Origin: Acidobacteriota bacterium
GTDB taxonomy: Bacteria > Acidobacteriota > UBA890 > WLXD01
DNA length: 64,000 bases
NCBI GenBank assembly: GCA_965248695.1
Contig: CBDFKD010000002.1
Span: 5,632,001-5,696,000 of the forward strand
Direction of reading: 5' to 3'
Shown here piece by piece: positions 5,460 through 55,312 of the stretch (positions are counted from its first letter, which is position 1; each line of letters opens with the position of its first letter). Position numbers and translations under genes: made by a program. The notes beneath the pieces are model-generated. The model had not been told where the DNA came from and did not search any database. It was given only the letters and a program-made list of their open reading frames with translations.

Positions 5460-5734
5460 TGCACCTCCTCTTGGGCAACGCCATCGCCATTGGCGAGCGT
5501 CGCCCGACCGGAAACTAGTTGATCTTGATAGTTCGTACTAGCATCGTACCGACGCCAATGTCAATGGACTCGGACGATCTCTCGTGCGATCACTCACGTC
5601 CTGGCGACCCGGAATTGGATGGGCAAGCGAGACCGCAAGAGACGAGAAGAAGCTGCCTACCGAGCGATTCTTCTGAAGCAGGTATGCTGGAAGCGGCGTC
5701 CGCTTGGAGGCGCAAACGGCGGACAATTGTGGCT

Positions 5735-7012
5735 ATGAAGAGCCTCTTGGCGACGCTCAGTTTGGCGCTGACGTGCATCGTCTTCGTGATCATTGAAGTG
5801 AGCGCCCAGACGATCGAAGCGCAGAGCCCGACGCAGTTAGAAACGGCCGAGCGCGCCGGGCTCGCCGCGTTGGAGAGCGGCGACCTCGAGGCAGCCGTCG
5901 AGGCCATCGGCTCGCTCGAGCAGGCCATCAGCGCGGGCCTCGGTGGCGCGGACACCTTGGTTCTGCTCGGCCGTCTACTCGCGCACTACTCCGACGACCT
6001 GTTCGGCGCCCTTCGTGCCGCTGAAGCGTTCGAGCGTGCCTTCGTCATCCGTCACGACGACGCCGAGCTATGCCGTGATCTGGCGGCCTCCTATCGCCGC
6101 ATCGGTCTCGGCCGCCAGGGCCTCGAGGCGATCGAGGCCTGCGAAGCCCCGGCACGCGGCCCGGGCCTCTGGCTCGAGCGCGGGCGTATTCTCGACAGGA
6201 TGGGCCGCTATCACGAGGCCCGTGAGGCGATGCATCAGGCAGCAGCGGCGGGGGCCGGGGCGTCGGCCGACTACGAGCTCGGCCTCATGGCGATCACCAA
6301 CCGCGACGTCGAGACGGCGATGGCTGCGTTGCAGCGCGCCGTAGCTCGCGAGCCCGGCATGGCGCCGGCCCATCTGCGCCTCGGAAGCCTACTGATCCAG
6401 GCGGGCGAGATCGACACCGCCATCACCAGCCTACGGCGCGCCATCGAGGCGTCGCCCAGGATGGCCGAAGCGCACCATCTGCTCGGTCGCGCCCTCGCGG
6501 ACGCGGGTGAGCCCGAGGCGGCATTGGCGGCTCTGGACGACGCGCTGACGGTCGATGCGGAGCTGCTCCCTGCCGCACAAGGGCGCATCGAGACATTGCA
6601 AGCCCTTGGCAGGGAAGAAGAAGCTCGGGTGGCCATGGATGAGCTCGCAGCGATGCAACAGGTGAGTCGCGAGGCCGAGTCCGGCGACTTTCTCAACATC
6701 GCAGCGGCCACACACAACATCCACGGCCTCTACTACTATCGACGGGGTGATCTGGCAGCCGCCGTCGAGCGCTTCCAGCTGGCATTGGCCATCTTCCCGG
6801 ACAACGCACTGCTGCACGAGAACCTCGCCAGAGCCTATGCAGCAGGCGGCGATCACGAACTCGCTGTCGATGCGCTGAATCGGGCGATCGAGGCGGATCC
6901 GCGTCGGCCAGACGCTTACGTGCTGCTCACCGGCCAGTACCGGGCCCTCGGGCGCCACGACGAAGCGAGCCACGTTGAGGCCCGATACCGGGCGCTTCTC
7001 GAGCAGCGCTGA
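5735..7012 (+). CDS. Secreted tetratricopeptide-repeat protein
   Basis: Start moved to ATG 5735, which gives the signal peptide MKSLLATLSLALTCIVFVIIEVSAQ. Multiple TPR-like helix pairs (AHLRLGSLL, AHHLLGRAL, HENLARAY). Confidence 0.85.
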   Translation: MKSLLATLSLALTCIVFVIIEVSAQTIEAQSPTQLETAERAGLAALESGDLEAAVEAIGSLEQAISAGLGGADTLVLLGRLLAHYSDDLFGALRAAEAFERAFVIRHDDAELCRDLAASYRRIGLGRQGLEAIEACEAPARGPGLWLERGRILDRMGRYHEAREAMHQAAAAGAGASADYELGLMAITNRDVETAMAALQRAVAREPGMAPAHLRLGSLLIQAGEIDTAITSLRRAIEASPRMAEAHHLLGRALADAGEPEAALAALDDALTVDAELLPAAQGRIETLQALGREEEARVAMDELAAMQQVSREAESGDFLNIAAATHNIHGLYYYRRGDLAAAVERFQLALAIFPDNALLHENLARAYAAGGDHELAVDALNRAIEADPRRPDAYVLLTGQYRALGRHDEASHVEARYRALLEQR

Positions 7013-7026
7013 GCAGGGGGCGAGCC

Positions 7027-8736
7027 GTGATGGCGGAGAGTATTCGAGCGGGCGCAATCCTGGGCGTGCTCGTCTTGATCGCCCCCGAAGGCTTGTCGGG
7101 ACAGCTTCGCCCCACGTTCCGTTTCGTCGAGGCCGCCGACGACGTCGGCCTGCTGTTCGACCATCACCACGGCGGTACGGGCGAGCGTTACCTCGTGGAG
7201 ACCATGGGATCGGGAGTGGCGACCGTCGACTACGACGCGGACGGGCGGACGGACGTGTATTTCGTACAATCCGCCGCAACACTGGGCTATGAGCCTTCCG
7301 GTCCGTTGCCCAACCGGCTCTTTCGCAACCGGTCATCCGGATACGAGGGCGGGGCGCGCTTCGTCGACGTCACGACCGCGTCCGGTGCCGGTGACGCGTC
7401 GTACGGTCAGGGCGTCGCCGCCGCCGACTACGACAACGACGGCTTTGTCGACCTGTACGTGACCAACTACGGTCCCAACGTTCTGCTGCGCAACAACGGC
7501 GACGGTACGTTCGAGGAAGTCGGCGTCAACGGCGGGGCCGACGACCAGCGTTGGAGTACATCGGCCGCCTGGGGCGACGTGGACCTGGATGGCGACCTCG
7601 ACCTCTACGTCGCCAACTACCTCGATTTCCGCTGGGACAACCACCGATACTGCGGAAAACCGCACCTGCAACTCCAGGCCTACTGCTCACCAGAGGCCTA
7701 CGCCGGAGTTTCGGACCTCCTCTACCGCAACGACGGTGACGGCTTCAGCGACGTCTCGGAGACGGCTGGCGTGGTCAACCCCGAGGAGGGCAAAGGTCTT
7801 GGTGTGATCTTCGTGGACTACGACGACGACGGGGACGCAGACCTCTATGTGGCCAACGACTCGACTCGCAACTTCCTCTACACCAACGACGGCCATGGTG
7901 GCTTCGTCGACGACGCCCTGCTCGCGGGCGCGGGGTTCAACAGGGACGGGCGGGTCGAGGGCGGGATGGGGGTCGATGCCGGCGACTACGATGGTGACGG
8001 CACGCTGGACCTTTTGGTGACCAACCTCGATCTCGAAACCAATACGCTCTACCGGGGTCTCGGGACAAGCAGCTTCAGGGACGCCAGCTTCGACGCGGGT
8101 CTCGGCGTGTCGAGCTTGATGAGCGTCGGCTTCGGCACCAACTGGATCGACGTCGACAACGACGGCGACCTCGATCTGTTCGTCGCCAACGGCCACGTCA
8201 ACGACCTCACCGCGCAGCTGCGCCAGGGCACGACTTACCGACAGCCCAACCACCTGTACCTGAACATCGGCGGCGGACGTTTCGATTCGGCGCACGCCCG
8301 CCTCGCCTCGGATCCGGTGACTGCCAAGGTCTCGCGAGGATCGGCGATCGCCGATCTCGACGAAGACGGCGATCTCGACATCGTGGTGAGCAACAACAAC
8401 CAGACTGCCGACTACCTGCGCAACGAAGGCGGCAATCGCGCCGGCGCCTTCATTCAGCTGTTGCTCGTGGGCTCGCAGGCAAATCGCTCTGCCAGCGGCG
8501 CCCGGGTGCGGGTGCAACTGGAAGGGCGAGCTCAGGTGATGGAGGTGAGGACCGGGTCTTCCTATGCGTCCACCAGCACGCCCCGGCTGCACGTCGGGCT
8601 GGGTGAGGCTCGTGCGGCCGATGTCACGATTCGCTGGCCGGGCGGCGGCATCGAGCGAATTGACCGGCTCATCGCAGGCCGGCTGTACGTCGTGCGCGAG
8701 GGTCGTGGGGTCGTCGCCTCACGCTTGTTGAACTGA
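7027..8736 (+). CDS. CRTAC1-family protein (FG-GAP/VCBS repeats + ASPIC/UnbV domain)
   Basis: ETMGSG, repeated DYDNDGxxDLYV motifs, SRGSAIADLDEDGDLD, C-terminal NRSASGARV...LHVGLG...IRWP. Confidence 0.93.
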   Translation: MMAESIRAGAILGVLVLIAPEGLSGQLRPTFRFVEAADDVGLLFDHHHGGTGERYLVETMGSGVATVDYDADGRTDVYFVQSAATLGYEPSGPLPNRLFRNRSSGYEGGARFVDVTTASGAGDASYGQGVAAADYDNDGFVDLYVTNYGPNVLLRNNGDGTFEEVGVNGGADDQRWSTSAAWGDVDLDGDLDLYVANYLDFRWDNHRYCGKPHLQLQAYCSPEAYAGVSDLLYRNDGDGFSDVSETAGVVNPEEGKGLGVIFVDYDDDGDADLYVANDSTRNFLYTNDGHGGFVDDALLAGAGFNRDGRVEGGMGVDAGDYDGDGTLDLLVTNLDLETNTLYRGLGTSSFRDASFDAGLGVSSLMSVGFGTNWIDVDNDGDLDLFVANGHVNDLTAQLRQGTTYRQPNHLYLNIGGGRFDSAHARLASDPVTAKVSRGSAIADLDEDGDLDIVVSNNNQTADYLRNEGGNRAGAFIQLLLVGSQANRSASGARVRVQLEGRAQVMEVRTGSSYASTSTPRLHVGLGEARAADVTIRWPGGGIERIDRLIAGRLYVVREGRGVVASRLLN

Positions 8737-8941
8737 CGATCGAGGACTTGCCGCGCACTCTGACACGGACGTCCGGTGTCTTGTTGATCGAGACCTCCTC
8801 GCAGCAGTGGGGCGATCCCTTTCATCGCTCAACGGTTGACCTGCCATCGCCGCTGCTGCCAACGTAGCCGGGCTCGGCAACACGACGCCGACGACAAGAG
8901 CCAACGCTCGGATGAATCGAGCCCGGTCAAGGAGGCGAGAG

Positions 8942-11041
8942 ATGAGGCTCGGTCACCACAAGACACTCCTCGTTTGTTCGGTGGTCGGCTTGGTTTGTCT
9001 CGCGGCTGCGCAGGTGCTGATGGCCCATGGCGGTGAGGCACGCCTGGTCAAGCTCATGCCGTGGCAAGCGGAACGGATTCCGCGGGTCCTGGGAGCGGAG
9101 CGCTCCGAGCTCGGCGTAAGAGGTTCCGATCGCCGCATCGAGATGACGACGATCGGCGACCGATCCTGCGTCGTGGGACCGGTCATCGCCTTCGACATCG
9201 ACGACGACTACGCCTTCGATATCGACGAGCCGGTCAGTCTGACTCTCACCTATGTTCCGGAGCTCACGGGGCCGTTCACCGTTGGCTGGGACCAGAACGG
9301 CGGTGAAGGCGTCGGCGTCTCGGAGCGCATCGAGCCACAGCCGGGGGCGATGTTCCGCAGCCTGACGCTGACCCTCGACCGCGCCCGGCTGGCCGGCCAG
9401 GGTATCCGCCGCACCGACATCGCGGTCGGCGGCCAGGGCGGCATCGTGCTATGCGACGTCGAGATCGCACGCAGCGGCAGTACCGTGCCGGCCAGCGCGT
9501 TCGGGCGCCTGCAGCTGACGGTGACGGATGCGAGCTCGGAACGCCCTATCCCGGCGCGAGTGGGCGTGTACGACTCGACCGGTCGTGCGCCGCTGCCGTC
9601 GGACGATGCACTGCTGGTGCATCGGTTCACCGACGAAGTTCGTCTTCTTTGGATCCATGGCAAAACGCTGTGGCCGTCGGACAACCGCCAGGCCTTTTAC
9701 GTGAACGGGGACTACGAGGCTCGCTTGCCAGTGGGCTCCTACGAGCTCGTCCTCACGCGAGGACCCGAATACCGCGTCGCCCATCGCAGCTTTGAGGTTC
9801 GCGAGAACGTCACCAGCACGGTCGACGTGGCGATGGAACGGTACGCCGACCTGCCGGCGCGCGGCTGGTTCTCCGGCGACTCCCACGTTCACATCCAACG
9901 ACACAGGGTCGACGACGAGGCCGTCTGGGGACAGCTGGCTGCCGAGGACGTTCATGTCGCCAACCTGCTGGAGATGGGCAACATCGCCGGCACTCACTTC
10001 AAGCAACCCGCCTGGGGCGAAGAGGGCCACTTCGGACGCGATACCTACATGCTGGTCTCCGGCCAGGAAGACCCGCGCACCGTGCAGCGTGGCCACACGA
10101 TCCACCACAATCTCTATCGTCCGTTCCATCAGGATCCGGACTCCTACTTCCTCTACCATCGCGTCTTCGAGGAGTCTCACCGGCAGGGCGGCATCTCGGG
10201 GTACGCACACCTCGGTGAACTGTTCAACGGCCGGCGCGGCCTGGCGTTGGACGTGCCCTTCGGGATCGTCGACTTCATCGAGGTGCTCCAGGGCGGGCGT
10301 CTGTTCGGCGATATCTGGTACAGCTTCTTGAACCTCGGCTTCAAGGTGTTGCCGGTCGCCGGTGCCGATTTCCCGTATTTCGGTCCGACCCTGCCCGGGG
10401 TCGAGCGTACCTACGTCAAGCTGGATGGCCCATTCAGCGTCGATGCCTTCTTCGACGCCTTCCTGCGTGGTCGAGTGTTCGTGAGCAACGGCCCGTTCCT
10501 GGAGTTCACCGTGAACGGGCACGAGATCGGCGAGGAGCTACGGGTAGAGCGTGGTGCGCGGCTCGAGATCGTAGCCGAAGCGTCACTCAACCCGGACGTC
10601 GACCAGCTCGACCGATTGGAGCTGCTGGTTCACGGTGAGGTGGTGACGTCGGAGGCGGCCGGCGGACGAGACCGGGTCCGGCTGCGCACGGAGATCACCG
10701 CCGACCGCAGCATGTGGCTCGCCGTTCGCGCCCTTGGGCAGCGCCAGGAGCGCCGCAACTCGATCGTCGCTCACAGCGCCCCGACCGTGGTCATCGTCGA
10801 TGACGAGCCGTTCTGGAAGCCGGAAGCCGTCCCCGAGCTGGTCGCCCGTCATCGCGCCCAACTGCAAGAGCTGATGACGGCGCGGATCGCGCCGGACGAT
10901 GATCTGGAGCCGTGGGAGACCCGCTACCTGCTGCTGCAACAATGGGAGCGACAACGCGAGCTACTGGAGTCCCGGGTGGAAGAGGCCGACGCGCGCTACC
11001 TCGATTTGTTGGAGCGCGTCCAGGCATCATCGCGGCGCTAG
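8942..11041 (+). CDS. Secreted CehA/McbA-family (PHP-like) metallohydrolase
   Basis: AAGGAGG RBS before ATG 8942; signal peptide; RGPEY; GWFSGDSHVH; GYAH; VAGADFP; FVSNGP; AHSAP. Confidence 0.85.
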   Translation: MRLGHHKTLLVCSVVGLVCLAAAQVLMAHGGEARLVKLMPWQAERIPRVLGAERSELGVRGSDRRIEMTTIGDRSCVVGPVIAFDIDDDYAFDIDEPVSLTLTYVPELTGPFTVGWDQNGGEGVGVSERIEPQPGAMFRSLTLTLDRARLAGQGIRRTDIAVGGQGGIVLCDVEIARSGSTVPASAFGRLQLTVTDASSERPIPARVGVYDSTGRAPLPSDDALLVHRFTDEVRLLWIHGKTLWPSDNRQAFYVNGDYEARLPVGSYELVLTRGPEYRVAHRSFEVRENVTSTVDVAMERYADLPARGWFSGDSHVHIQRHRVDDEAVWGQLAAEDVHVANLLEMGNIAGTHFKQPAWGEEGHFGRDTYMLVSGQEDPRTVQRGHTIHHNLYRPFHQDPDSYFLYHRVFEESHRQGGISGYAHLGELFNGRRGLALDVPFGIVDFIEVLQGGRLFGDIWYSFLNLGFKVLPVAGADFPYFGPTLPGVERTYVKLDGPFSVDAFFDAFLRGRVFVSNGPFLEFTVNGHEIGEELRVERGARLEIVAEASLNPDVDQLDRLELLVHGEVVTSEAAGGRDRVRLRTEITADRSMWLAVRALGQRQERRNSIVAHSAPTVVIVDDEPFWKPEAVPELVARHRAQLQELMTARIAPDDDLEPWETRYLLLQQWERQRELLESRVEEADARYLDLLERVQASSRR

Positions 11042-11077
11042 CAAAGCACGCGGAGCACCATTGAAGGAGGATCACTC

Positions 11078-12808
11078 ATGAAGAGGATCTCCAAGCATCG
11101 GATCTTGGAGCTTACTTTCCGCCACATCGTCATCCTGGGAGCCGCCGTCGCGCTGACCGTCGCGGGCGAGGCTCCCGCGCGCGCGCGCGCTTCTCAAGCA
11201 GCCGAGCCCTTCGACGTCCTGATCCAAGGCGGACGTGTCTTTGATGGCAGCGGCAACCCCTGGTTCCGCGCCGACGTCGGCGTGCGGGATGGCAAGATCG
11301 CCGCCATCAGCGACCTCTCCGACGCCGCTGCGGCGCATGTCATCGATGCCACCGGCATGGCCGTCGCCCCCGGCTTCATCGACATCCACAGCCATTCGGA
11401 CGGCACTCTGCCCGTCGATGGCACGGCACAGAGCAAGATCCGCCAGGGGGTAACGTTGGATGTCGGCGGCGAGCGGTCGTCGGTAGCGCCACTGGCCGGC
11501 GAAGTGCTGGAGGAGCGCCGGGCCAGCGCTCGAAGCCAGGGTTACGAGCTCGACTGGACCGATCTCGACGGCTACTTCGAGCACCTGATGCGCAAAGGCA
11601 TCTCGCTCAACGTCGCCATCAAGATCGCACCTCAACAGGTCAAGCGCGTCGTCGTCGGTGGGAGCGTAGAGCAGGCTGCTACGCCGGAGCAGCTGGAGCG
11701 CATGAAGCAGCTGATCGTCGAGGCGATGCACGACGGCGCCATCGGTATCGCCAGCTGGTTCCGCGGCGGCGGCTATCGCTTCGCCGAGGAGATGATCCCG
11801 ATGGCGCAAGCGGCAGTCGATCACGGCGCCGTGGTCTATGAGACGCATGTCGGCAGCGAGGGCTACCAGCTGCAGGAAGAGCTGCAGAAAGCGATCGACA
11901 TCGTCGAGCAGACGGGCCTGCCGGTGAGCGTTGCCCACTTCAAGATTCGCGGCCGCGCCATCTGGGATCAGCTGGAGCCCGCCATCCGCATGATCGAGGA
12001 CGCTCGCGAGCGCGGCCTGGACATCACCGCCAACCAGTACCCCTACACGGCGATGACGCAGGGGTGGTCCAACTTCTTCCCGACCTGGGCGCGTGAGACG
12101 GAGGACCTGGAGGATCTCCTCGGGAGCATCGCCACCCGCGATCGGATCCGCAACGATCCTGAGTGGATCCAGTACTTCGAGGAGCACGGCGGTATCGAGG
12201 GCGTCGTCCTGTGCTGCCTCCGAAACGACAGTCCGGTCAAGCAGTACGACGGCATGAGCGTGGCGGAGATCGCCGCGGAGCGTGGTGATCCGGACCCGAT
12301 CAATGCTCTCTTCGAAGTGGTGATGGAGAACGGTCGTTTCCCGGGCGGCATCCACCACAACCAATCGGAGGAGAACGTGCGCCGCATCATGGCGCTGCCG
12401 TGGGTGGCGATCGCTTCGGACGGATGGGCCGTGCGTCCGGACGGCATTCTGGGTGAAGGGGTCGTGCACCCGCGACTCTACGGCACCTTTCCCCGCGTGC
12501 TGGGACGCTACGTGCGCGACCAGCCGCTGCTGACCTTGGCGGACGCGATCCGCAAGATGACCTCCCTGCCGGCCCAGGTGCTTCGGCTCGAGGACAGGGG
12601 TAGCCTACGCCAGGGCTACTGGGCCGATATCGTCGTCTTCGACCCGGAGACGGTTATCGACGTCGCCACCTACGACGAGCCGCACCGGTACCCGATCGGC
12701 GTCGACTATGTGTTGGTCAACGGCGTCGTCGTCATCGACGACGGCGAGCACACCGGTGCGCGGCCCGGACAACCCGTCTATGGGCCCGGAAGACGAGCCA
12801 CGCATTGA
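11078..12808 (+). CDS. Secreted N-acyl-D-amino-acid deacylase (D-aminoacylase family amidohydrolase)
   Basis: DGSGNPWFRADVGV, APGFIDIHSHSD, QYPY, IASDG, HPRLYGTFPRVLG, ADIVVFDP. N-terminal signal peptide. Confidence 0.92.
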   Translation: MKRISKHRILELTFRHIVILGAAVALTVAGEAPARARASQAAEPFDVLIQGGRVFDGSGNPWFRADVGVRDGKIAAISDLSDAAAAHVIDATGMAVAPGFIDIHSHSDGTLPVDGTAQSKIRQGVTLDVGGERSSVAPLAGEVLEERRASARSQGYELDWTDLDGYFEHLMRKGISLNVAIKIAPQQVKRVVVGGSVEQAATPEQLERMKQLIVEAMHDGAIGIASWFRGGGYRFAEEMIPMAQAAVDHGAVVYETHVGSEGYQLQEELQKAIDIVEQTGLPVSVAHFKIRGRAIWDQLEPAIRMIEDARERGLDITANQYPYTAMTQGWSNFFPTWARETEDLEDLLGSIATRDRIRNDPEWIQYFEEHGGIEGVVLCCLRNDSPVKQYDGMSVAEIAAERGDPDPINALFEVVMENGRFPGGIHHNQSEENVRRIMALPWVAIASDGWAVRPDGILGEGVVHPRLYGTFPRVLGRYVRDQPLLTLADAIRKMTSLPAQVLRLEDRGSLRQGYWADIVVFDPETVIDVATYDEPHRYPIGVDYVLVNGVVVIDDGEHTGARPGQPVYGPGRRATH

Positions 12809-12898
12809 ACACTCGACAGGGGCCGGCGTCGACAAGCGTCGTTGCCGCGGTCGTCAGTTGCACCGCACGACCTCACTGCATCTCGGAGACGCCAGACA

Positions 12899-12912
12899 GA
12901 GAGAATTCTCTC
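12899..12912. promoter_or_regulatory. Perfect 14-bp palindrome upstream of the Rieske oxygenase gene (candidate operator)
   Basis: GAGAGAATTCTCTC is self-complementary, relatively AT-rich for this genome, and lies about 80 bp upstream of ATG 12994. Confidence 0.35.
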
Positions 12913-12993
12913 AAGCTCGACGATGCCGTGGTGAAAGCGGTGCGCGTGTGCTTCCATTCAGGGATCTGAGTGTCGGGGCCGCGGGAGGATGGC

Positions 12994-14544
12994 ATGAGCA
13001 AAAGAGACAGCGAGAACGGGAAAGAGACCAAGGGAAAGAAGGTCAGTCGCCGCGACTTCGCCAAGTCATCGGTCGCAGCGGGGGCCGCTGCAGTAGCGCT
13101 TCCCAAGGCGTTGCGTGGCGAACCGTTGGTGGAGAAGGCAGCGTCGACGGCGGCAAAGGCATCGACCTCCGCGAGTCGGGGCCCGATTACGATGCCGCCC
13201 GAAGTGTCGTACGGCGGTGTGGATTTCGACGGACGCGACGTGCTCCTGGATGAGATTCTGTCGCCCCCCGGCAAAGCGCCGACCTATCCAGGCGGATGGC
13301 AGGAGGGAACGACGATTCCTGCCGAGTACTACCTCGACGAGAAGCACTGGCTCAACGAAGAGCGCTTCCTCCGTGATCAATTCTGGTTCATGGCCGACCA
13401 CGAGAGCCGCATCGCCAATCCCGGCGACTACTTCCTCTTCGAGTTCGGGCGTGGCGACAGTGTGATCATCGCGCGCGCCGAAGACGGTTCCGTGAAGGCC
13501 CACCACAACGTCTGTCGACACCGCGGATCGCGCATCTGCCTGCACGACCAGAACCTGCCCGGGTCGGCGACGGCCAACGGCAAGCCGGAGGACCCGCGGC
13601 TGTCGGTAGTGCAGCAGGGGCCGAGCGGCAATACGGCGGTCTTCCGTTGCCCCTATCACGCCTGGACGTACGATCTCGACGGCAAGCTGATCTCGTTCCC
13701 CACCGGCATGCCGGAGGGGTTCGACGAAACCCAGCACGGCCTGCACCCGGCCCATGTGCGGATGGTCGAAGGATTCATCTTCGTCAGCCTGGCCGACGAG
13801 GAGCCATCGGGGTTCGACGAGTTCGTTGCCAACTGGCGACGGGTGTCCCAGTTCTATGGGACCGCGGGCATGAAAGTAGCGGCGCGCACGCAACACCCGA
13901 CGAGGGCCAACTGGAAGCTGGCGGTGGAGAACTTCGAAGAGTGCTATCACTGTGAGCCAGCGCACAAGTCGCTGGTAGAGGTGCAGTGGTGGCAGCGCCA
14001 ACACGTGCTGAGCGACGAGCAAGTCGCCGACATCGAGCAGGCGGTGGCGCGTCACCAACACCCGGACGAGAAACTTCGGAAGGGGGCGGACGGGGTACGG
14101 GAGGACACCTATTCAATGAGCGTCCACCTGGCTCCCGGCTACGTGACGGGCAGCCTCGATGGCAAGCCGGTAGCGCCGCTCTTGCTCGACGAGTGGACGC
14201 ACAAGCGCCGCGGCGCCACGACCGGGTTCTCGACGTCGTTCTTCGCCGCCTACGACGATCATCTCGCGGTCGCCCGATTCACCCCACGAGACATCTTGAT
14301 GACCGATGTCGAGATCTTCTGGCTGGTAAGAGGCGACGCGAAGGAAGACGAGGTAGACGTAGAGCGAATGATGGAGCTCTGGGACGTCACCTATCGTGAG
14401 GATCTATGGATCGTCGAGAACAACCAGCACGGCATCCGCAACAGCCGCTACAACCATCGCGGCGGACAGCCATACGCGCAACGTGAGGGCGGACCCGCTG
14501 GGTTCATCAAGTGGTACATGACCGAAATCGCACCCCACGCATGA
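12994..14544 (+). CDS. Rieske non-heme iron oxygenase alpha subunit (GbcA/choline-monooxygenase-like) with Tat signal
   Basis: GGAGGA RBS; SRRDFAK Tat motif; Rieske ligands CRH...CPYH; mononuclear Fe motif ANWKLAVENFEECYHCEPAH; late EDLWIVENNQHG. Confidence 0.92.
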   Translation: MSKRDSENGKETKGKKVSRRDFAKSSVAAGAAAVALPKALRGEPLVEKAASTAAKASTSASRGPITMPPEVSYGGVDFDGRDVLLDEILSPPGKAPTYPGGWQEGTTIPAEYYLDEKHWLNEERFLRDQFWFMADHESRIANPGDYFLFEFGRGDSVIIARAEDGSVKAHHNVCRHRGSRICLHDQNLPGSATANGKPEDPRLSVVQQGPSGNTAVFRCPYHAWTYDLDGKLISFPTGMPEGFDETQHGLHPAHVRMVEGFIFVSLADEEPSGFDEFVANWRRVSQFYGTAGMKVAARTQHPTRANWKLAVENFEECYHCEPAHKSLVEVQWWQRQHVLSDEQVADIEQAVARHQHPDEKLRKGADGVREDTYSMSVHLAPGYVTGSLDGKPVAPLLLDEWTHKRRGATTGFSTSFFAAYDDHLAVARFTPRDILMTDVEIFWLVRGDAKEDEVDVERMMELWDVTYREDLWIVENNQHGIRNSRYNHRGGQPYAQREGGPAGFIKWYMTEIAPHA

Positions 14545-14552
14545 GGTAAGCC

Positions 14553-16517
14553 ATGACAAATCGCGATCTCGGCATGCGCCGCGACATCACCCGTCGTGAC
14601 TTCGTCAACGGAGTCAGCGTCGCCGTCGGCGGGGCGCTGGCGCTGCCGGCCCGACTGCGCGCCGCCGGAATGCCACAGGCCTACGCGCCCGAGCAGACGG
14701 CGGACTACTACCCGCCTACCCGTACCGGCATGCGGGGCTCCCATCCGGGCTCCTTCGAGGCGGCGCACGCCGCCCGCGACGGGATGAATTTCGATGCCGC
14801 CGAGGATACCGGCGAGACCTACGATCTTATCGTCGTCGGTGCCGGCCTCAGCGGTCTGGCAGCAGCGTATTTCTATCGCAAGGCAACCGGCCCCGACGCC
14901 CGCATCCTGATCCTCGAGAACCACGACGACTTCGGCGGCCACGCCAAGCGCAACGAGTTCGAGCACGACGGCGAGGTGCTGCTTGCAACGGGCGGCACGG
15001 TGTACATGGTGCACGCGGACCAATACCCGGCGCCGGCGCGGGAGATGCTCGAGGACATCGGCGTCGAGCTCGATCATCCGACCAACAACATGCATCGAGG
15101 CATGTTCAGGGAGATGGGACTGGAGCCCGCCGTCTTCTTCCACGAGGAAGGCTACGGCGAGGACGCGCTTGTCGCCGGCAGCGTCCGACGACCCACCGAG
15201 GAGTTCCTCGCCAAGACGCCGCTGCCTGACCAGGTGCGGGCAGATCTACTGCGCCTCTGGAACGACCGGCGCGACTACATGCCTGGGCTGTCCCAGGCGG
15301 AGAAAATCCAGGAACTCCAACGGATCAGCTACCGCGACTATCTGCTCGACGTCGCCAAGGTCCATCCGGACGTGCTGCCGCTGGTGGGTGGCGTTTGGTG
15401 TCTTGGCGCCGATACATCGAGCGCCTGGTTCGCCCTGTATCGTGCGCTGCCGGGTTTCCAGGGACTCGGGATCGCGATTCCGGCGGAGTCGCCGTCGCTC
15501 CCCGGCCACGGCAAGACCGACGTCTACTTCCCCGCCGGCAACTCCGACATCGCCCGGATGATCGTCCGATCGTTGATCCCGGCAGCCCTGCCGGCCGGGT
15601 CGATGGCCGACCTCGAGCTGCAGCGCACCGACTACTCGACGCTCGACGAACCGCGCTCGCCCGTCCACCTGCGGCTCAACAGCGCGGCCGTGCACGTACG
15701 CCATGTCGGCGATGCGCCCGATCTCTTGAGCTCCGACTCGCGCCAGACCGAGGTCACCTACGTGCGTGGCGGCCGAGCCTATAAGGTGCGAGGAAAGGGC
15801 TGTGTGCTGGCCTGCTACCACACCATGATCCCGCATCTGTGCCCCGAGCTTCCGAACAAGCAGAAGGACGCCCTGAGCCTCGCCTCACGCGCCGTACAGA
15901 TGTACACCAACGTCCTGGTGCGCGACTGGAGGCCTTTCGAAGAACTGGGCGTGTCGACGATTTCGTGTCCGGGTTCGTTCTACAGCGCCATCCGTCCGCG
16001 AACACCGCATGCGTTCGGGGCCCACGATCCACCGCGTTCGCCCGGCGACCCGATCATTGTCTCGCTGGGAGACGGCGGCGGGGTGCTCTCCTGGGAGCCG
16101 ATGGTTCGAGGTCTACGCCGCGGAGAATCGATTCCACCCGGCACACCGGTTCGGGAGCAAATGCGATTGGTGCGACAGGGGCTGCTGGAGACATCCTTCG
16201 AGGATTTCGAACGGCGAATTCGTGAACAGATGACGCGGGTGCTGGGGCCGGCAGGCTTCGACGCGGCGCGCGACATCGAGGCCATCATGGTCAACCGCTG
16301 GCCACACGGCTATGCGCTGGCGACCAACACGCTCTTCGACCCGGAGTGGGCGCCCGGCGAGGAACCTTGGAAAGTCGCCAGTCGGCAGTTCGGGCGGATC
16401 ACGATCGCCAACACCGATGCCTCGGGGATCGATCTCACTCAGACCGCTTTCGACGAGGCTCACCGCGCGGTGGACGAACTCCTGCAGATGCGCCACGGCT
16501 GGTTCCCGAAGGTCTGA
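14553..16517 (+). CDS. Spermidine dehydrogenase (SpdH)-like FAD flavoprotein with Tat signal
   Basis: ITRRDFVNG Tat motif; YYPPTRTGMRGSHPGSFEAAH; VVGAGLSG FAD motif; ENHDDFGGHAKRNEF; VNRWPHGYA; FGRITIAN. All resemble the SpdH family. Confidence 0.88.
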   Translation: MTNRDLGMRRDITRRDFVNGVSVAVGGALALPARLRAAGMPQAYAPEQTADYYPPTRTGMRGSHPGSFEAAHAARDGMNFDAAEDTGETYDLIVVGAGLSGLAAAYFYRKATGPDARILILENHDDFGGHAKRNEFEHDGEVLLATGGTVYMVHADQYPAPAREMLEDIGVELDHPTNNMHRGMFREMGLEPAVFFHEEGYGEDALVAGSVRRPTEEFLAKTPLPDQVRADLLRLWNDRRDYMPGLSQAEKIQELQRISYRDYLLDVAKVHPDVLPLVGGVWCLGADTSSAWFALYRALPGFQGLGIAIPAESPSLPGHGKTDVYFPAGNSDIARMIVRSLIPAALPAGSMADLELQRTDYSTLDEPRSPVHLRLNSAAVHVRHVGDAPDLLSSDSRQTEVTYVRGGRAYKVRGKGCVLACYHTMIPHLCPELPNKQKDALSLASRAVQMYTNVLVRDWRPFEELGVSTISCPGSFYSAIRPRTPHAFGAHDPPRSPGDPIIVSLGDGGGVLSWEPMVRGLRRGESIPPGTPVREQMRLVRQGLLETSFEDFERRIREQMTRVLGPAGFDAARDIEAIMVNRWPHGYALATNTLFDPEWAPGEEPWKVASRQFGRITIANTDASGIDLTQTAFDEAHRAVDELLQMRHGWFPKV

Positions 16518-16528
16518 GTCCGGTACCT

Positions 16529-16999
16529 CTACTGCTTGTCGAAGTGGAGCTCCTGGAGGATCGAGCCGTCCGCCCGGTACCACATCACCTGCATCGTCTT
16601 GCCGTCCTCCGAGACCTGTCGCAAGAACATGCCGGAGAAGGTCCCATCGGCGCGCTTGCCGAGCCGCAGCTCGCTGCGTTCCGACATGCGGATCATCCTC
16701 ACGAACCCCCGCGATTCCTCGCCGGTGTCGAGGCTCTTGCCCCGGTACCACTGGCCGTCGTCGAAGGTTGCCGTATACGTGCTCCGTGATCGCCGGCCGT
16801 TGTCGGTGATGTCGTTGATACCGGTCTCGGCGTTGTTCTCATGCTTGAGCGTGATGATCTCCACTTCCGGAAGCGGCGAGCCGTTGGTAATCGACTTCGA
16901 TTGATCGAGCTTCCAGACCCCGTTGAAGGGATCGTCCTGGGCATGGGCAGTCCCGACCAGCAAGAGAGACAGTGCGAGCGCTGCGATCGACGTCTTCAT
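16529..16999 (-). CDS. Small secreted beta-barrel (lipocalin-like) hypothetical protein
   Basis: ATG 16999 after GGGAG; signal peptide MKTSIAALALSLLLVGTAHA; DPFNGVWKLDQSKS; VSEDGKTM; C-terminal FDKQ. Confidence 0.8.
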   Translation of the reverse strand: MKTSIAALALSLLLVGTAHAQDDPFNGVWKLDQSKSITNGSPLPEVEIITLKHENNAETGINDITDNGRRSRSTYTATFDDGQWYRGKSLDTGEESRGFVRMIRMSERSELRLGKRADGTFSGMFLRQVSEDGKTMQVMWYRADGSILQELHFDKQ

Positions 17000-17079
17000 G
17001 GTTTTCTCCCTGTTTGTGAGTAGTGCAAGCCCGAATCGGTTGCTCGCCGTGCCGCTCTCGTCGACGCTGGCTCCGGTGC

Positions 17080-17805
17080 TCAACGCCTGTTCCAGATGTC
17101 GATGACCTCGGTATGCCCCACCAGCGTGGCGTTGTCACCGATGTACAACATTGCATCCTCGGCGCGCGCGGGATCCGTCGGCACGATGGCGTCTTTGATC
17201 GCCACCGTACGATAGCCGAGGCCGCGGGCAGTCTGCATCGTCGGCACGACACCAACCTCGGCGCCGACCCCGACGATGACGATGGTCGTGAGTCGATTCC
17301 ACCGCAGCAACTCGTCGAGGGCGGTGCCGATGAACGCGTCCGGTCGGTACTTCCTGAGCACCCAGTCATTGGCCACGGGCTCGATTTCCCCAGGATTCTC
17401 CCATCCCCAGGTGCCCTCGTTAGTTGAGATCGTGGACGGCGGCCCGGGGTCAATGGGCCTTTCCCCGGGTCTGCCATAGGTCGACCCGTCCGGGTAGGAG
17501 GTCCAGCGAACATACGCAACCCGCACGTTGTTTGCCCTCGCGGCAGCCAGCAGATCGACCATCGGGTCCATGATGCCGGTAACGTCGATGCGTCGCCCGC
17601 TTTCGTCGAACGATCCGCCCTCTGAGACGAAGGCGTTCAGCACTTCGTGAACGAGAAGAACGGTGTGCTCAGGATCGAGGAGCTGTCCGAGCTCATCGCC
17701 GGATTGCGCTTCGACGCCCCCTGGCATTCCCGCGGCCAGCGTGAGCCCGGCGACAACGATCACCGAAGCGGGGCTCGCCAGACGCGATTCAGGCCTGATT
17801 CTCAT
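17080..17805 (-). CDS. Secreted isochorismatase/cysteine-hydrolase-fold protein (catalytic Cys absent), paralogue 1
   Basis: TVLLVHEVLNAF, EGTWGWE, KYRPDAFIGTALDELLR, IVIVGVGAEVGVVPT; signal peptide ending VEA; GAGGA RBS. Confidence 0.85.
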   Translation of the reverse strand: MRIRPESRLASPASVIVVAGLTLAAGMPGGVEAQSGDELGQLLDPEHTVLLVHEVLNAFVSEGGSFDESGRRIDVTGIMDPMVDLLAAARANNVRVAYVRWTSYPDGSTYGRPGERPIDPGPPSTISTNEGTWGWENPGEIEPVANDWVLRKYRPDAFIGTALDELLRWNRLTTIVIVGVGAEVGVVPTMQTARGLGYRTVAIKDAIVPTDPARAEDAMLYIGDNATLVGHTEVIDIWNRR

Positions 17806-18163: not shown

Positions 18164-19711
18164 ATGTGGACATCAGCGATCCGACTCAAATTAGCTGCGC
18201 AGGGCGCGCTCGCGAGGACGGCGATCCTCATGGTCTTCGCAGTATCAGCTGCGGCGTGTGCGGGACCGCCCGACTCTCCGACAGACGCGCGGGCGACGGC
18301 GGCGGACGACCTGAACGAATCGTTGCTGCGATGGCCGCTGCCGCCTGGCGCTGAGGCGTACGCCGACATCGACGGCCGGCGCCTGCATCAGTACGTCGTG
18401 CAGCAGGCGGAGATATCGTGGCGGTACAGGGACGGGGGGCATCCGCAATTCTGGGGACGGATTACCGGTACGTCTGCCGATGCGGAGAGCGCCGAGTGGC
18501 TAGCCGCCGAGTTCCGGGACCTCGGCCTCGCGGACGTGCGTATCCAGCGGCTCGATCTGGAGCCGCAGTGGATGGCGCAGTCGTGGGATGTGTCGGTTAC
18601 GGCCGGTGGCAAGACCTTGCCGCTCGAATCCGCCCAGCCGGCCTACCGTACGTCGGCGACGCCTCCAGCCGGCCTTCAACTCGACGCCGCCTATGTGGGG
18701 CTCGGCAGTGAGGCTGACTTCGTCGGGCGCGATGTCGACGGCAAGGCGACGTTCGCCTTCGGCATGCTGGGGATCCGGTCGGAAGGCGCGCTGGCACGAG
18801 CCGATGCCAACGGCGCCGCAGCCATCTTCGATGTGCGGATGTTGCCCGGGAACATGCGCTACCAGGCCTATCCGGCGCGGACCAACGTCCCTACCTTTAC
18901 CCTCGGAAGCGAGGATGGCTACGCGGTCCGCAACCTGATCGCCGCCGGCGAAGCGCCGCGCCTGAGCGTCACGCTCGATGTAGAGATGGTGCCGGATATG
19001 GAGACGGCGCTCGTCTGGGGAACGCTGCCGGGCACCTCCGACGAGACGATCTACGTCATGGCGCACCGCGATGGCTGGTTCGATGCGGCCGGTGACAACG
19101 CCTCCGGTGTCGCCTCGATGATCGGGCTGGCGGGGTACTACGCACAGGTCCCTCAGTCGGAGCGACGTCGCACAATGGTCTTTATCGGCTTGGATGGGCA
19201 CCACAATCTGGGCGGCGGGGGGACCGGAGCCGCCGGGGGATTCTGGTTGATGGACCACCGCGAGGAGCTCTTTGCCAAGACCGCCCTGGTGATCAACTGC
19301 GAGCATCCGTCGACGGTGCAGACCACGGTGAGGCCACGGTACCTGGGCCGGGACGAGATCGTCTGGTCGAATGCCTACATGCCCCAGCAGTGGTACGTCG
19401 GCGGCCCGTCGAGACCGGAGCTCGGAGCAATCGCCATCAAAGCCTTCCGAGAGTTCGGGGTCAGCACGTATCTCGAGCCGAACGCCGAGCCGCCAGCCGG
19501 TGATCTCGGTTGGCGAGGCGGACCGGAGTTATGGCGCTTCGTGCCGGGCATCGCGACGAGCGAATTCTACCACTACTTCCACACCGACCAGGAGACGCCG
19601 GAAACCGTTTTGTGGACTGGTCTCGAGGCGTCGACGCGTGCCTACGCACGCATCATTGATGAGGTGAACCGGCTTGCGCTGAGCGACCTGCGGCGACCGG
19701 AAGAGCCATAG
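18164..19711 (+). CDS. M28-family metallopeptidase-like lipoprotein (PA-domain-containing)
   Basis: Lipobox-like SAAAC; GRITGTSAD; YVMAHRDGWFDAAGDNASG; NCEH; YFHTDQET. Confidence 0.85.
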   Translation: MWTSAIRLKLAAQGALARTAILMVFAVSAAACAGPPDSPTDARATAADDLNESLLRWPLPPGAEAYADIDGRRLHQYVVQQAEISWRYRDGGHPQFWGRITGTSADAESAEWLAAEFRDLGLADVRIQRLDLEPQWMAQSWDVSVTAGGKTLPLESAQPAYRTSATPPAGLQLDAAYVGLGSEADFVGRDVDGKATFAFGMLGIRSEGALARADANGAAAIFDVRMLPGNMRYQAYPARTNVPTFTLGSEDGYAVRNLIAAGEAPRLSVTLDVEMVPDMETALVWGTLPGTSDETIYVMAHRDGWFDAAGDNASGVASMIGLAGYYAQVPQSERRRTMVFIGLDGHHNLGGGGTGAAGGFWLMDHREELFAKTALVINCEHPSTVQTTVRPRYLGRDEIVWSNAYMPQQWYVGGPSRPELGAIAIKAFREFGVSTYLEPNAEPPAGDLGWRGGPELWRFVPGIATSEFYHYFHTDQETPETVLWTGLEASTRAYARIIDEVNRLALSDLRRPEEP

Positions 19712-19741: not shown

Positions 19742-19839
19742 TTAACTGCGCTCCTCTACTTTGGGGCCCGCGCCTGGTGTCTTCAGCTCCTCCGGCAGGA
19801 CCCCGTACCGACACCAGCGCACGCAGTGGAGTACGCGCC

Positions 19840-20562
19840 GTGGAACGTAATCAGGCATTCCGGTTGCTCATGACAGGATCGGTCGGCGTCATGCTCGTCG
19901 GTCTCCTCTGGACACCGGGCGGAACGCTTTCGGCACAGGACCGGCCGCCAGCGCTGTCGGAGGTTGTCGCCCCGGAGCACACCGTCCTCCTCGTGCACGA
20001 GGTGCTCAACGCGTTCGTTTCCGACGGGGGGATGTTCGCCGAGCAGGGCCAACAGATCGACATCACCGGCATCATGGATCCGATGGTGAAGCTGATCGCC
20101 GCCGCCAGGGACAACGGTGTTCGAGTCGCCTACGTTCGGTGGAACACCTATCCGGACTACTCCAATTATCGGCGGCCCTCGGAACGTCCCGACCCTGATG
20201 CGCCGGTGGCAACGAACGAGATGCACGAGGGGACCTGGGGATGGGAGAACCCGCCGGAGATTGCCCCCGGCCCCTTCGATTGGATCCTGCGGAAATACCG
20301 CTCGGACGCTTTCGTCGCTACCGCACTCGACGAGCTGCTGCGATGGAACGGGATCACCACGATCGTGATCGTCGGGGTCGGCGCCGAGGTCGGGGTCGTG
20401 CCGACCCTGTCGACGGCCGAGGTCCTCGGGTACGCCACCGTAGCCGTCGAGGATGCCATCCGACCTACAGAAGAGCATCGGCTTGCGGATGCGATGCTCT
20501 ATATCAACGACCATGCCCGGGTGGTAAACCACACCGACCTCATCGAAGCCTGGAACCGGTGA
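19840..20562 (+). CDS. Secreted isochorismatase/cysteine-hydrolase-fold protein (catalytic Cys absent), paralogue 2
   Basis: Core closely similar to 17080-17805 (PEHTVLLVHEVLNAFVS, GVGAEVGVVPT). Start uncertain (GTG 19840 after GGAG, or ATG 19870); signal-like segment ending LSA. Confidence 0.85.
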   Translation: MERNQAFRLLMTGSVGVMLVGLLWTPGGTLSAQDRPPALSEVVAPEHTVLLVHEVLNAFVSDGGMFAEQGQQIDITGIMDPMVKLIAAARDNGVRVAYVRWNTYPDYSNYRRPSERPDPDAPVATNEMHEGTWGWENPPEIAPGPFDWILRKYRSDAFVATALDELLRWNGITTIVIVGVGAEVGVVPTLSTAEVLGYATVAVEDAIRPTEEHRLADAMLYINDHARVVNHTDLIEAWNR

Positions 20563-25795: not shown

Positions 25796-25799
25796 CGGC

Positions 25800-26879
25800 T
25801 CAGTCCTGCGTCGACTTGTCCGTTGACATGATCGGCGTGTCCCAACCGGCAAGATCGGCTGGGCGCACACCGCGACGATAGCCATCGAAGGCGAAGGCGA
25901 CGGGATTGTAGGGCCCCACCAGCGCGATGTCGCTGTCCGGCTGGATCGATCCTTCCAGGCCGACGGCCCACAGCGCCGCGTTGATCATCAGGCGGCGGAA
26001 TCCCTCGTTGAGAAAGTCCTCCGAGGCGCCGTGGGTGGTGGTGAAGACACGGGCTTGGCGGCCGTCTCCGGCCTCGTAGGTGCGCGTCCAGGCGACCGGC
26101 AACACCGCCTTGTCAGGTGCCGGGGGCGAGTCGGCACTCATTCCATCGAGGACTTGACCGGTGGCGAGAACGACGGAATCGGGCATCGGGTCGGCATAGT
26201 AGCCACCGGAGACAGCGTGCACGTCGCGTACGCCGCGAAGAACCGGGTGTGTCTCCTGGTTCTGTCCCTCTCGGTCCGCCAGCAGCAGCCTCGAGCTCTG
26301 TTCGTGGTTCTCGCCGTGATGCGTTACCCAGGTCTCGCCGAGAACCTGGCGGCCGAAGCCGCCGCTGTACTCCGCCCCAGCGTAGTCCCAGGTGTACTTG
26401 CCGAACGGTCCGCCCTCGATCTCGAAGGCATGCGTCGCGGTGCGAATGCCGACAATCGGACCGCCGCGGTCGAGGTAGTCGACGATGTGCTGCATCTCGG
26501 CATTCGGAAAGTCCTGGAATCGCAGGCCGACGATCAGCAGATCGGCGCTCGTCAGCGCTTCGAGGCCGGCGATATCGGAGCTGCCGGGCTCGATGAAACC
26601 GTCGCCGTCGAGGGTGAAGAACACGCTGCATTTGAAGCCGAATCTGCTGGCCAGAATGCGCCCCATCGCCGGCAGTATCTCCTCGGATCGATACTCGTGG
26701 TCCCCGGCGATCAGGACGATGTGCCGACCGGCGCCGGGTCCATCCGCGCGCGGGCCCGCACTACCGTCGTAAACGACGCGATAGGGGTTGTCTGGCAAGA
26801 CCGTATCGTCCTGCGGCACCGAGGCGACGCAGCTCGCCAGGACGGCCGGGAGCAGCATGGACGAAGATGCGATTCTCAT
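25800..26879 (-). CDS. ThuA-like domain lipoprotein
   Basis: Lipobox-like VLASC; HIVLIAGDHEYRSEE; GIRTATHAF; PVAWTR; RVFTTTHG. Confidence 0.82.
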   Translation of the reverse strand: MRIASSSMLLPAVLASCVASVPQDDTVLPDNPYRVVYDGSAGPRADGPGAGRHIVLIAGDHEYRSEEILPAMGRILASRFGFKCSVFFTLDGDGFIEPGSSDIAGLEALTSADLLIVGLRFQDFPNAEMQHIVDYLDRGGPIVGIRTATHAFEIEGGPFGKYTWDYAGAEYSGGFGRQVLGETWVTHHGENHEQSSRLLLADREGQNQETHPVLRGVRDVHAVSGGYYADPMPDSVVLATGQVLDGMSADSPPAPDKAVLPVAWTRTYEAGDGRQARVFTTTHGASEDFLNEGFRRLMINAALWAVGLEGSIQPDSDIALVGPYNPVAFAFDGYRRGVRPADLAGWDTPIMSTDKSTQD

Positions 26880-55090: not shown

Positions 55091-55312
55091 GGCGACTCTT
55101 TGCCGGCCGTTTGGGATCAAGGTCTCTCTCGCCGAAGAACTGCGTGGTCGGGCGACCTTCCTCAGGGGGCCGCCGTAGCCGCGGGTGAGTGTAGTGGCTT
55201 GCAGGACAGCCGGCACACGGCGCGGCGTTGCTTCGACACATCGATCGCGTCGGCAGGCGTTAGGATGATCTCACTCGATCGTCTCTGCCGGCCCTTCCAT
55301 TCGCGTGCTCCG

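Follow-up and report, generated by a model that had tools for sequence, protein, structure and literature searches.

The stretch of DNA analysed here, referred to as the window, comprises 64,000 nucleotides (nt) of the forward strand of an Acidobacteriota genome (GenBank assembly GCA_965248695.1, contig CBDFKD010000002.1, positions 5,632,001 to 5,696,000). It carries two consecutive genes on the same strand, which encode a predicted Rieske non-haem-iron oxygenase (P0001) and an apparent amine dehydrogenase of the SpdH family (P0002), each beginning with a putative signal for twin-arginine translocation (Tat; Table 1). The stop codon of the oxygenase gene (TGA, 14542–14544) and the start codon of its partner (ATG, 14553) are separated by 8 nt, and a GAGG motif lies 6 nt before the latter. 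The start of P0001 at ATG 12994 agrees with the N-termini of its closest homologues, and a longer alternative beginning with GTG at 12970 is less likely. The two genes may be read from one transcript and would then serve one route for nitrogen compounds in the periplasm. Their combination points to a periplasmic Rieske oxygenase that could be powered by haem proteins instead of reduced nicotinamide nucleotides, NAD(P)H.

Table 1. Features at and around the gene pair, with positions counted from the first nucleotide of the window
Feature	Positions	Strand	Basis or remark
Outer-membrane beta-barrel protein with CarboxypepD_reg domain, divergent	2574–5459	-	Domain search
TPR protein, FG-GAP/ASPIC protein, CehA/McbA metallohydrolase, amidohydrolase	5519–12808	+	Pfam and NCBIfam
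Shine-Dalgarno-like GGGAGGA, 5 nt ahead of ATG 12994	12983–12989	+	Read in sequence
P0001, predicted Rieske non-haem-iron oxygenase alpha subunit, 516 residues, Tat-signal clade	12994–14544	+	Pfam, solved relatives, model
P0001 putative Tat signal region, residues 1–37: N-terminal region (n-region), SRRDFAK (13045–13065), 13-residue hydrophobic region (h-region)	12994–13104	+	Conservation of Arg19, Arg20, and Phe22; model confidence
P0001 clade-specific insertion, about residues 184–210, between the CxH and CxxH cluster-binding motifs	13543–13623	+	Motif spacing
P0001 predicted catalytic mononuclear iron domain, residues 293–510, with Glu316, His319, His324, and Asp470	13870–14523	+	Ring_hydroxyl_A span
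P0002, predicted SpdH-family FAD/haem b amine dehydrogenase, 654 residues	14553–16517	+	Homology to 7d9f; NAD_binding_8 at residues 94–159
P0002 putative Tat signal region, with TRRDFVN at 14589–14609	14553–14666	+	Alignment to the PA3713 signal
P0002 His72 codon, counterpart of PaSpDH haem b ligand His54	14766–14768	+	Alignment
P0002 His585 codon, counterpart of PaSpDH haem b ligand His562	16305–16307	+	Alignment
Exported protein of 184 residues, no known family	16532–17083	-	Directly after the pair
Isochorismatase-like hydrolase, signal-like N-terminus	17083–17805	-	
M28 peptidase, between the two isochorismatase-like genes	18164–19708	+	
Isochorismatase-like hydrolase, signal-like N-terminus	19777–20559	+	
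Protein of 994 residues: GDSL lipase domain, DUF7133, C-terminal cupredoxin (plastocyanin/azurin-like)	22904–25885	-	

Two putatively exported enzymes

P0001 matches the Pfam Rieske domain with 46 bits (cut-off 20.3) and Ring_hydroxyl_A (PF00848) with 88.7 bits (cut-off 24.9). Its homologues were taken from the 120 best database hits, which are 45–91% identical to it and mostly cover 97–100%. After removal of the truncated or partly covering sequences (P0009, P0039, P0056, P0059, P0071, P0099, P0115, and P0121), the resulting alignment, A1, contained 113 sequences. The Rieske cluster ligands (Cys174, His176, Cys219, and His222), the iron ligands (His319, His324, and Asp470), and the bridging Glu316 are invariant in all 113, and the cluster-binding motifs, CRHRG and CPYH, are of the oxygenase type. 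An AlphaFold2 model built on A1 reached a mean predicted local distance difference test (pLDDT) score of 83.2. Residues 1–61 fall below 50, matching the expectation for a signal and a linker, and the model beyond them is confident. By both sequence and structure, the best solved relatives are 3n0q, Stc2, and CntA; comparison with the quaternary-amine Rieske monooxygenases gave E-values of 1e-43 to 1e-28 by sequence and 1e-30 to 1e-22 with Foldseek, at target template modelling (TM) scores of 0.73–0.79. With these cluster ligands, this iron site, and this fold, P0001 is a predicted Rieske non-haem-iron oxygenase of the alpha-only type. An assignment as the glycine betaine monooxygenase GbcA was rejected, as the score against the equivalog model NF058607 of NCBIfam is 215 bits at a cut-off of 670, which marks a relative rather than a member. 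A cluster look-up on nine proteins returned two names, a generic ring-hydroxylating dioxygenase for P0036 and "NAD(P)-binding protein" for P0153.

The Tat motif of P0001 (Ser18-Arg19-Arg20-Asp21-Phe22-Ala23-Lys24) precedes an h-region with a mean Kyte–Doolittle value of 1.49. A twin-arginine pattern was looked for in the first 80 residues of the query and its 120 hits, and it is present in 113 of these 121 sequences; homologues whose genes were called independently have it right at the N-terminus. Among the eight misses are three with NRREF, a twin arginine outside the pattern, and five with truncated or odd starts. Within A1, Arg19, Arg20, and Phe22 are invariant (113/113), and behind the h-region all homologues have a disordered linker that is rich in Ala, Ser, and Thr and varies in length. 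P0001 is a predicted Tat substrate, combining a motif of the S/T-R-R-x-F-L-K type with a moderately hydrophobic h-region, and the source genome holds two genes for TatC. A search with the first 104 residues of P0001 against 1.84 billion cluster representatives yielded 25 matches at E ≤ 0.001, nine of them at E ≤ 1e-10 and most of them short fragments; the query is short and of low complexity, so these counts do not measure the size of the clade. Most homologues in A1 additionally contain a second basic motif, four consecutive arginines in the consensus just ahead of a conserved MPPEV.YGG, and the corresponding region of P0001 (residues ~55–75) has a single arginine.

P0002 aligns with the solved SpdH of Pseudomonas aeruginosa (PA3713, PaSpDH; 7d9f) over residues 12–643 with an E-value of 5e-115. 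The N-termini of the two proteins match residue for residue, with ITRRDF of P0002 opposite ISRRDF, and the TRRDFVN motif is followed by a 14-residue h-region. In a set of 117 homologues (A2, with three truncated rows left out), His585 is kept in 117/117 and His72 in 96/117, and both are kept in all 26 paralogues of the source genome. Full-length homology, an FAD (flavin adenine dinucleotide)-binding fold, and both predicted haem b ligands identify P0002, as judged from its sequence, as an SpdH-family member. PMC12564564 describes PaSpDH as an FAD enzyme whose haem b is exposed at the surface, with His54 and His562 as its ligands; electrons run from FAD to the haem and on to cytochrome c, ferricyanide, or electrodes, and the enzyme is more active without its first 33 residues. 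The PA3713 signal peptide is an entry marked "This work" in a table of P. aeruginosa Tat substrates in PMC6085387. We infer export of both P0001 and P0002. The preliminary description of this DNA had read a twin-arginine signal and a full set of 2Fe-2S and mononuclear Fe ligands in the oxygenase, and an SpdH-like FAD protein with the Tat motif ITRRDFVNG 8 bp after its stop codon; both readings are borne out, the former by invariance throughout A1 and the latter by the homology to PaSpDH. A separate feature of the P0002 family concerns the n-region itself, in which Asp3, Leu6, Gly7, Met8, Arg10, and Ile12 (window positions 14553–14588) are conserved in at least 90% of the 117 homologues. This is unusual for the n-region of a signal, and the true start of some SpdH-like proteins could be the methionine at residue 8.

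Origin of the signal-bearing clade and its insertion

The spacing between the CxH and CxxH motifs is 42 residues in P0001, against about 17 in the usual case. It ranges from 34 to 47 in all 113 sequences of A1 and is 34, 42, or 44 in the paralogues of the source genome. A genome scan with one genome per species retained 80 loci, five of which encode the N-terminal extension (L001–L005, all from metagenome-assembled genomes of Acidobacteriota) and 75 of which are of the cytoplasmic type. The spacing is 34–42 in the five extended loci, 17–19 in the 73 cytoplasmic-type loci with a readable motif, and 16–19 in the cytoplasmic-type metagenome rows with a readable motif. Accordingly, every Tat-type sequence has an insertion of 17–30 residues that is missing from all 73 cytoplasmic-type genome loci. 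The insertion is conserved in sequence and modelled at a pLDDT of 90–92, and the HMMER match to the solved relatives breaks at this point. Its position beside the cluster invites the speculation that it could shift the potential or form a docking site.

A tree was calculated from 69 rows after columns that were empty in more than half of the rows had been discarded. The 33 Tat-type rows consist of the query, 11 database hits, 16 paralogues of the source genome, and the five loci, and the 36 cytoplasmic-type rows represent every second locus of that type, with L016 left out. All 33 Tat-type rows lie on one side of a branch of length 0.78 with 100% support in the Shimodaira–Hasegawa-like approximate likelihood ratio test (SH-aLRT), and their nearest neighbours are proteobacterial cytoplasmic relatives of the betaine/stachydrine demethylase type. 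A single origin of the signal-bearing clade is compatible with these sequence data and appears well supported; the tree is not an independent test of it, because the groups were defined by the trait itself.

Genomic linkage and redox neighbours

The source genome comprises 5.89 Mb in two contigs, is 96% complete, and was represented by a rough gene set of our own with 4273 genes. A six-frame search found 18 Tat-type oxygenase loci, 17 of them with the twin-arginine motif; one of the 18 is N-terminally cut beside transposase genes and one is interrupted by TGA. SpdH-like genes are present as 26 full-length copies, one further copy split in two, and fragments. Seven oxygenase/SpdH pairs are directly adjacent, whereas about 0.2 would be expected by chance (2 × 18 × 26 / 4273), and 10 of the 18 oxygenase genes share an unbroken gene string with an SpdH-like gene. 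With R for oxygenase and S for SpdH-like, the arrangements include R-S, R-R-R-S, S-R-R, one convergent pair, and one divergent pair. According to the trees, pairs 5644/5646 and 3828/3829 were duplicated as a unit, as were 5612/5613 and 5622/5623. The remaining pairs occupy different sub-clades of both families' trees, and therefore at least four of the pairings are separate.

Several further observations concern these loci. A second copy of the window pair lies at C2:3828368–3834286 (L116), with 80% and 81% identity and IS3-type transposase genes behind it, and genome G118 contains three copies of the pair with identical scores (L086, L090, and L094); these copies suggest a recent duplication of the pair, in which mobile DNA may have been involved. 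The stretch C2:5609594–5625725 (L119 and L120), which ends about 6 kb before the window, holds four Tat-type oxygenase genes and two SpdH-like genes in the orders R-S and R-R-R-S. The window pair is the last of three clusters within roughly 40 kb rich in exported amidohydrolases and a pyrroloquinoline quinone (PQQ)-cytochrome c dehydrogenase. At C2:3037331–3038830 (L096 and L115), a Tat-type Rieske paralogue with a single in-frame TGA may be a pseudogene or be read through. At C2:5174507–5176320 (L118), an SpdH-like gene occupies two abutting frames upstream of two Rieske paralogues, for which a frameshift is likely.

Outside the source genome, SpdH-like genes adjoin three of the five Tat-type loci of the genome scan, as the next gene downstream in L004 and L005 and at a distance of 2.7 kb, likewise downstream, in L002, against none of the 75 cytoplasmic-type loci. 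In a sample of 201 genomes of the phylum, an oxygenase match at E ≤ 1e-60 was found only in four genomes of the source's own genus and in G038. The four genus genomes hold nine copies 79–89% identical to P0001, eight in G069, G118, and G130 and the second copy of the source genome (L087), and an SpdH-like gene follows directly downstream in 9/9. Overall, 16 of 28 loci show an SpdH-like gene within 1.5-kb flanks. The metagenome locus L132 keeps the pair, L136 shows only SpdH-like fragments, and L134 ends without downstream DNA. In L135, a distant SpdH-like protein with a Tat signal (28% identity) is encoded directly upstream of the oxygenase, and in the cytoplasmic-type metagenome locus L142 an SpdH-like gene, likewise 28% identical, lies 2 kb upstream.

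Where an SpdH-like gene is absent, another periplasmic redox protein is often encoded beside the oxygenase. A small class I cytochrome c (Pfam Cytochrome_CBB3 or Cytochrom_C) adjoins the oxygenase gene in L001, L085 (the G038 locus), L135, and L139. The order in L135 is SpdH-like, oxygenase, cytochrome c, and L139 additionally encodes a cytochrome c'. In L138, the 2Fe-2S subunit and the Tat-signal molybdenum-cofactor subunit of a molybdenum hydroxylase are encoded next to the oxygenase gene, and in L001 and L133 a molybdopterin oxidoreductase lies two genes away. Around the 18 oxygenase loci of the source genome, 96 neighbour proteins include amidohydrolases, M24 and M28 peptidases, arginase, PQQ dehydrogenases, a TonB-dependent receptor and a related outer-membrane barrel, an aminomethyltransferase, and a DAO-type flavoprotein. 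Neither these 96 proteins nor those near the window pair include an NAD(P)H or ferredoxin reductase. The whole source genome gives one NAD_binding_1 (FNR-type) match, 14 Fer2 matches, and 35 Cytochrome_CBB3-type matches. The preliminary description had recognised no ferredoxin or reductase gene anywhere in the window. This calls for a minor correction, as two Pyr_redox_2 proteins are encoded at 54776–56584 (glutaredoxin-fused) and at 59591–61048 (beside 2-oxoacid dehydrogenase E2 and E1 genes). Both are at least 38 kb from the pair, and neither looks like an oxygenase reductase. None of the neighbourhoods examined, in the source genome or in others, contains a reductase, of the GbcB or CntB type or otherwise, and the genome-wide NAD_binding_1 match is a single one.

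Two further groups of genes were also seen. At C2:5251607–5254121, an SpdH-like paralogue with no oxygenase neighbour (5252121–5254121) stands directly beside a small cytochrome c match (5251607–5251828, in a frame of 213 residues), an adjacency that fits cytochrome c as a natural acceptor of these dehydrogenases. Tandem genes for proteins of ~425 residues lie upstream of Rieske clusters in two unrelated records, at L119:4594–7286 in the source genome and L136:72–2682 in a metagenome. These proteins have an N-terminal hydrophobic segment, one CxxCH, and a weakly squalene-hopene-cyclase-like C-terminus. They were considered as candidate cytochrome partners, but gave no Pfam cytochrome match and only weak hits of the cyclase-like kind, and they were assigned to no family. 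A frame of 1469 residues in G038 was rejected as a fusion protein, since the frame is over-extended; its true start is close to the twin-arginine motif, and cytochrome c is encoded by a gene of its own behind it.

Electron supply and the surroundings of the pair

Since NAD(P)H is absent from the periplasm and the genes nearby include none for a reductase, we propose that P0001 may be a Rieske monooxygenase of the periplasm that works independently of NAD(P)H and takes its electrons from haem proteins of that compartment, at this locus probably from the SpdH-like partner, either directly or via cytochrome c. The chances for and against this proposal appear to us evenly balanced. In this mechanism, the P0001 clade would have a single origin among cytoplasmic demethylases of quaternary amines, of which GbcA, Stc2, and CntA are examples, and would have acquired a Tat signal, a flexible linker, and the insertion. 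P0002, as a Tat-exported flavocytochrome, would dehydrogenate a C–N bond on FAD and pass single electrons to its surface-exposed haem b, from which P0001 would be reduced at this locus directly or through a small soluble c-type cytochrome. Oxygenation would thereby be driven by the oxidation of one amine bond. At this locus, the electrons would most likely come from the SpdH-like flavocytochrome, because its two electrons would be released singly from a surface haem, as a Rieske oxygenase needs, and because only 8 nt separate the genes. The ancestry among quaternary-amine demethylases, the amine dehydrogenase partner, and the amidohydrolase and peptidase neighbours suggest nitrogen-rich compounds as substrates, and an amine-type substrate of P0001 is presumed. 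Since the 26 SpdH-like paralogues have diverged, many different substrates are likely.

A more elaborate version of this proposal is tentative and, in our judgement, less likely than not. The Rieske cluster, reshaped by the insertion, would be reduced directly by the SpdH haem b or, elsewhere, by a small cytochrome c or a molybdenum dehydrogenase, so that dehydrogenation of one bond feeds the O2-dependent oxygenation of another. The 18 oxygenases and 26 dehydrogenases would then form a combinatorial toolkit acting on nitrogen-rich organic matter before uptake.

The energetics form the main objection. Oxygenase-type Rieske clusters have potentials near -150 mV, and those of typical c-type cytochromes are higher still than that of the SpdH haem. 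In PMC12564564, the catalytic current of PaSpDH is reported from -0.14 V vs Ag/AgCl, an onset that corresponds to roughly +0.06 V vs the hydrogen electrode. With low-potential cluster motifs in P0001 and higher potentials in the SpdH haem and the cytochromes, reduction of the Rieske cluster could be uphill. A complex prediction for P0002 residues 56–643 with P0001 residues 105–516, both supplied with alignments, scored 0.00 in two runs, in which the oxygenase was treated as a monomer without cofactors although its relatives are trimers; the score speaks neither for nor against a complex.

The linkage data also contain points that weigh against the proposal. The interpretation in the preliminary account, that a periplasmic Rieske oxygenase might draw electrons from the SpdH-like partner or the membrane chain, is partly supported. 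The pairing is much more frequent than chance predicts and recurs both in several independent sub-lineages and outside the source genome, yet it is facultative, as about half of the Tat-type oxygenase loci have no SpdH-like neighbour. Eight of the 18 oxygenase loci in the source genome lack an SpdH-like gene in the same string, and about 19 of its 26 SpdH-like genes have no oxygenase neighbour. The DNA around the oxygenase in L003, L133, L138, and L139 contains no SpdH-like gene, and G038 (completeness 100) possesses the oxygenase and no SpdH-like match at E ≤ 1e-40 with the query used. Conversely, G021 and G153, from the same family as the source genome, each contain a single SpdH-like gene but lack a Tat-type oxygenase at E ≤ 1e-60. 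Since either family can thus exist without the other, the clade cannot depend on the SpdH-like enzyme as its obligatory reductase. Moreover, kin genomes and duplicated pairs are not independent, so that there were fewer separate events than the count of adjacent pairs implies. The cleavage site of the P0001 signal, finally, is not readable from the sequence alone. Given the facultative pairing and the presence of a cytochrome c gene in G038, which has no SpdH-like match, the small c-type cytochromes are a second candidate for the donor or shuttle, one that the preliminary account had not considered.

These points leave room for a rival explanation, possible though in our judgement not probable, in which both enzymes are periplasmic and catalyse consecutive catabolic steps with no electron traffic between them. 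The SpdH-like enzyme would then deliver its electrons to cytochrome c and the respiratory chain, and a different periplasmic carrier would reduce the oxygenase; a small c-type cytochrome or a cupredoxin could fill this role, as could a protein that went unrecognised. The cytochrome c genes immediately beside the oxygenase gene in four loci from other genomes, the oxygenase of G038, and the abundance of Cytochrome_CBB3-type matches in the source genome are all consistent with this explanation, as are the SpdH-like paralogues, most of which lie apart from oxygenase genes and one of which neighbours a small cytochrome c (C2:5251607–5251828). No cytochrome c gene adjoins the pair in the window, however, and the 8-nt gap, together with the repeated retention of the pair in several sub-clades, suggests a tighter relation than a shared pathway. 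Ordinary c-type cytochromes would also be even less favourable in potential as donors to a low-potential Rieske cluster.

Two other explanations place the oxygenase differently. It is improbable, though conceivable, that an uncleaved Tat signal tethers P0001 through its long linker to the outer face of the inner membrane, in the manner of the bc1 Rieske subunit, where a quinol-linked membrane donor would reduce it. The disordered linker of variable length behind the h-region in all homologues would suit such a tether, and uncleaved Tat signals acting as anchors are known for bc1 Rieske proteins, according to PMC6085387. The h-region, at 13 residues and with its moderate hydrophobicity, is nevertheless short for a membrane helix, and no recurrent membrane redox partner appeared in the neighbourhoods scanned. 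We consider it very improbable that the oxygenase is cytoplasmic, with a twin-arginine region that is unused or wrongly included, a distant reductase supplying electrons from NAD(P)H, and the SpdH-like gene as a chance neighbour. All characterised relatives (GbcA, Stc2, and CntA) are indeed cytoplasmic, and the genome has the FNR-type match and the 14 Fer2 matches elsewhere. Against this explanation stand the invariance of the motif in A1, its position at the extreme N-terminus of independently called homologues, and the ribosome-binding site that backs the start at 12994, as well as the excess of adjacent pairs over chance and the contrast with the 75 cytoplasmic-type loci, none of which has an SpdH-like neighbour.

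The proposed periplasmic, haem-driven oxygenase combines traits of several known systems. Stc2 (3vca and 4qup), CntA (6y8j), and GbcA share with P0001 an alpha-only Rieske and mononuclear-iron fold, the same ligands, and the same glutamate before the first iron histidine. P0001 differs from them in its Tat signal and linker, an N-terminal extension of ~100 residues in all, in the insertion between the cluster-binding motifs, and in the lack of a GbcB- or CntB-type reductase gene nearby. P. aeruginosa SpdH is homologous to P0002 over the full length; their Tat signals align, and the two proteins share the FAD-binding fold and the pair of haem b histidines. P0002, in contrast, is one of 26 paralogues in its genome and is paired with an oxygenase gene, a partner that PA3713 presumably lacks. 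The export of a folded Rieske [2Fe-2S] protein by Tat has parallels in the bc1 Rieske subunit and in the small subunit of arsenite oxidase, which is likewise a Tat-exported Rieske protein. These subunits serve electron transfer with high-potential clusters and have no catalytic iron domain, whereas P0001 keeps a complete oxygenase catalytic domain. p-Cresol methylhydroxylase is a periplasmic flavin and haem enzyme that oxidises an organic substrate and gives single electrons to soluble periplasmic carriers; unlike in the proposed system, the oxygen in enzymes of this type comes from water rather than O2, and there is no coupling to a Rieske oxygenase. The Tat export of the bc1 Rieske protein is documented in PMC6085387.

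Full-text literature searches, which largely do not cover subscription journals and thus leave a prior description possible, returned no description of a Tat-exported Rieske oxygenase. The matches concern, by their titles, the bc1 Rieske subunit, or Tat peptides that belong to an amidase and to laccases, or, in a review, the bc1 and b6f complexes; the others, judged by title and opening of the abstract, treat different subjects. To our knowledge, every characterised Rieske oxygenase receives its electrons inside the cell from NAD(P)H via a reductase, with or without a ferredoxin. A conserved and expanded Tat-exported clade beside periplasmic haem and molybdenum dehydrogenases, with no reductase gene nearby, would break this rule and, if the proposal is correct, represent a new way of powering oxygen activation. 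We also know of no physiological electron acceptor established for SpdH-type flavocytochromes, and the oxygenase would provide one; the acceptors named for SpdH in PMC12564564 are cytochrome c and artificial dyes. An oxygenase that runs on an inexpensive sacrificial amine in place of NAD(P)H would also be of interest to biocatalysis. From an ecological viewpoint, the system suggests how these bacteria attack nitrogen-rich organic matter ahead of uptake.

The surroundings of the pair in the window include further genes for hydrolases and exported proteins (Table 1). A gap of 185 nt separates the upstream genes on the same strand from the oxygenase gene. A promoter scan of positions 10900–17300 found no sigma-70-like site, and its terminator-like hits all lie inside genes. 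The duplicated pair at C2:3828368, like the window pair, adjoins a protein with the same barrel and CarboxypepD_reg domains. At a distance of about 6 kb, the protein encoded at 22904–25885 offers, in its cupredoxin domain, a further candidate for carrying electrons in the periplasm.

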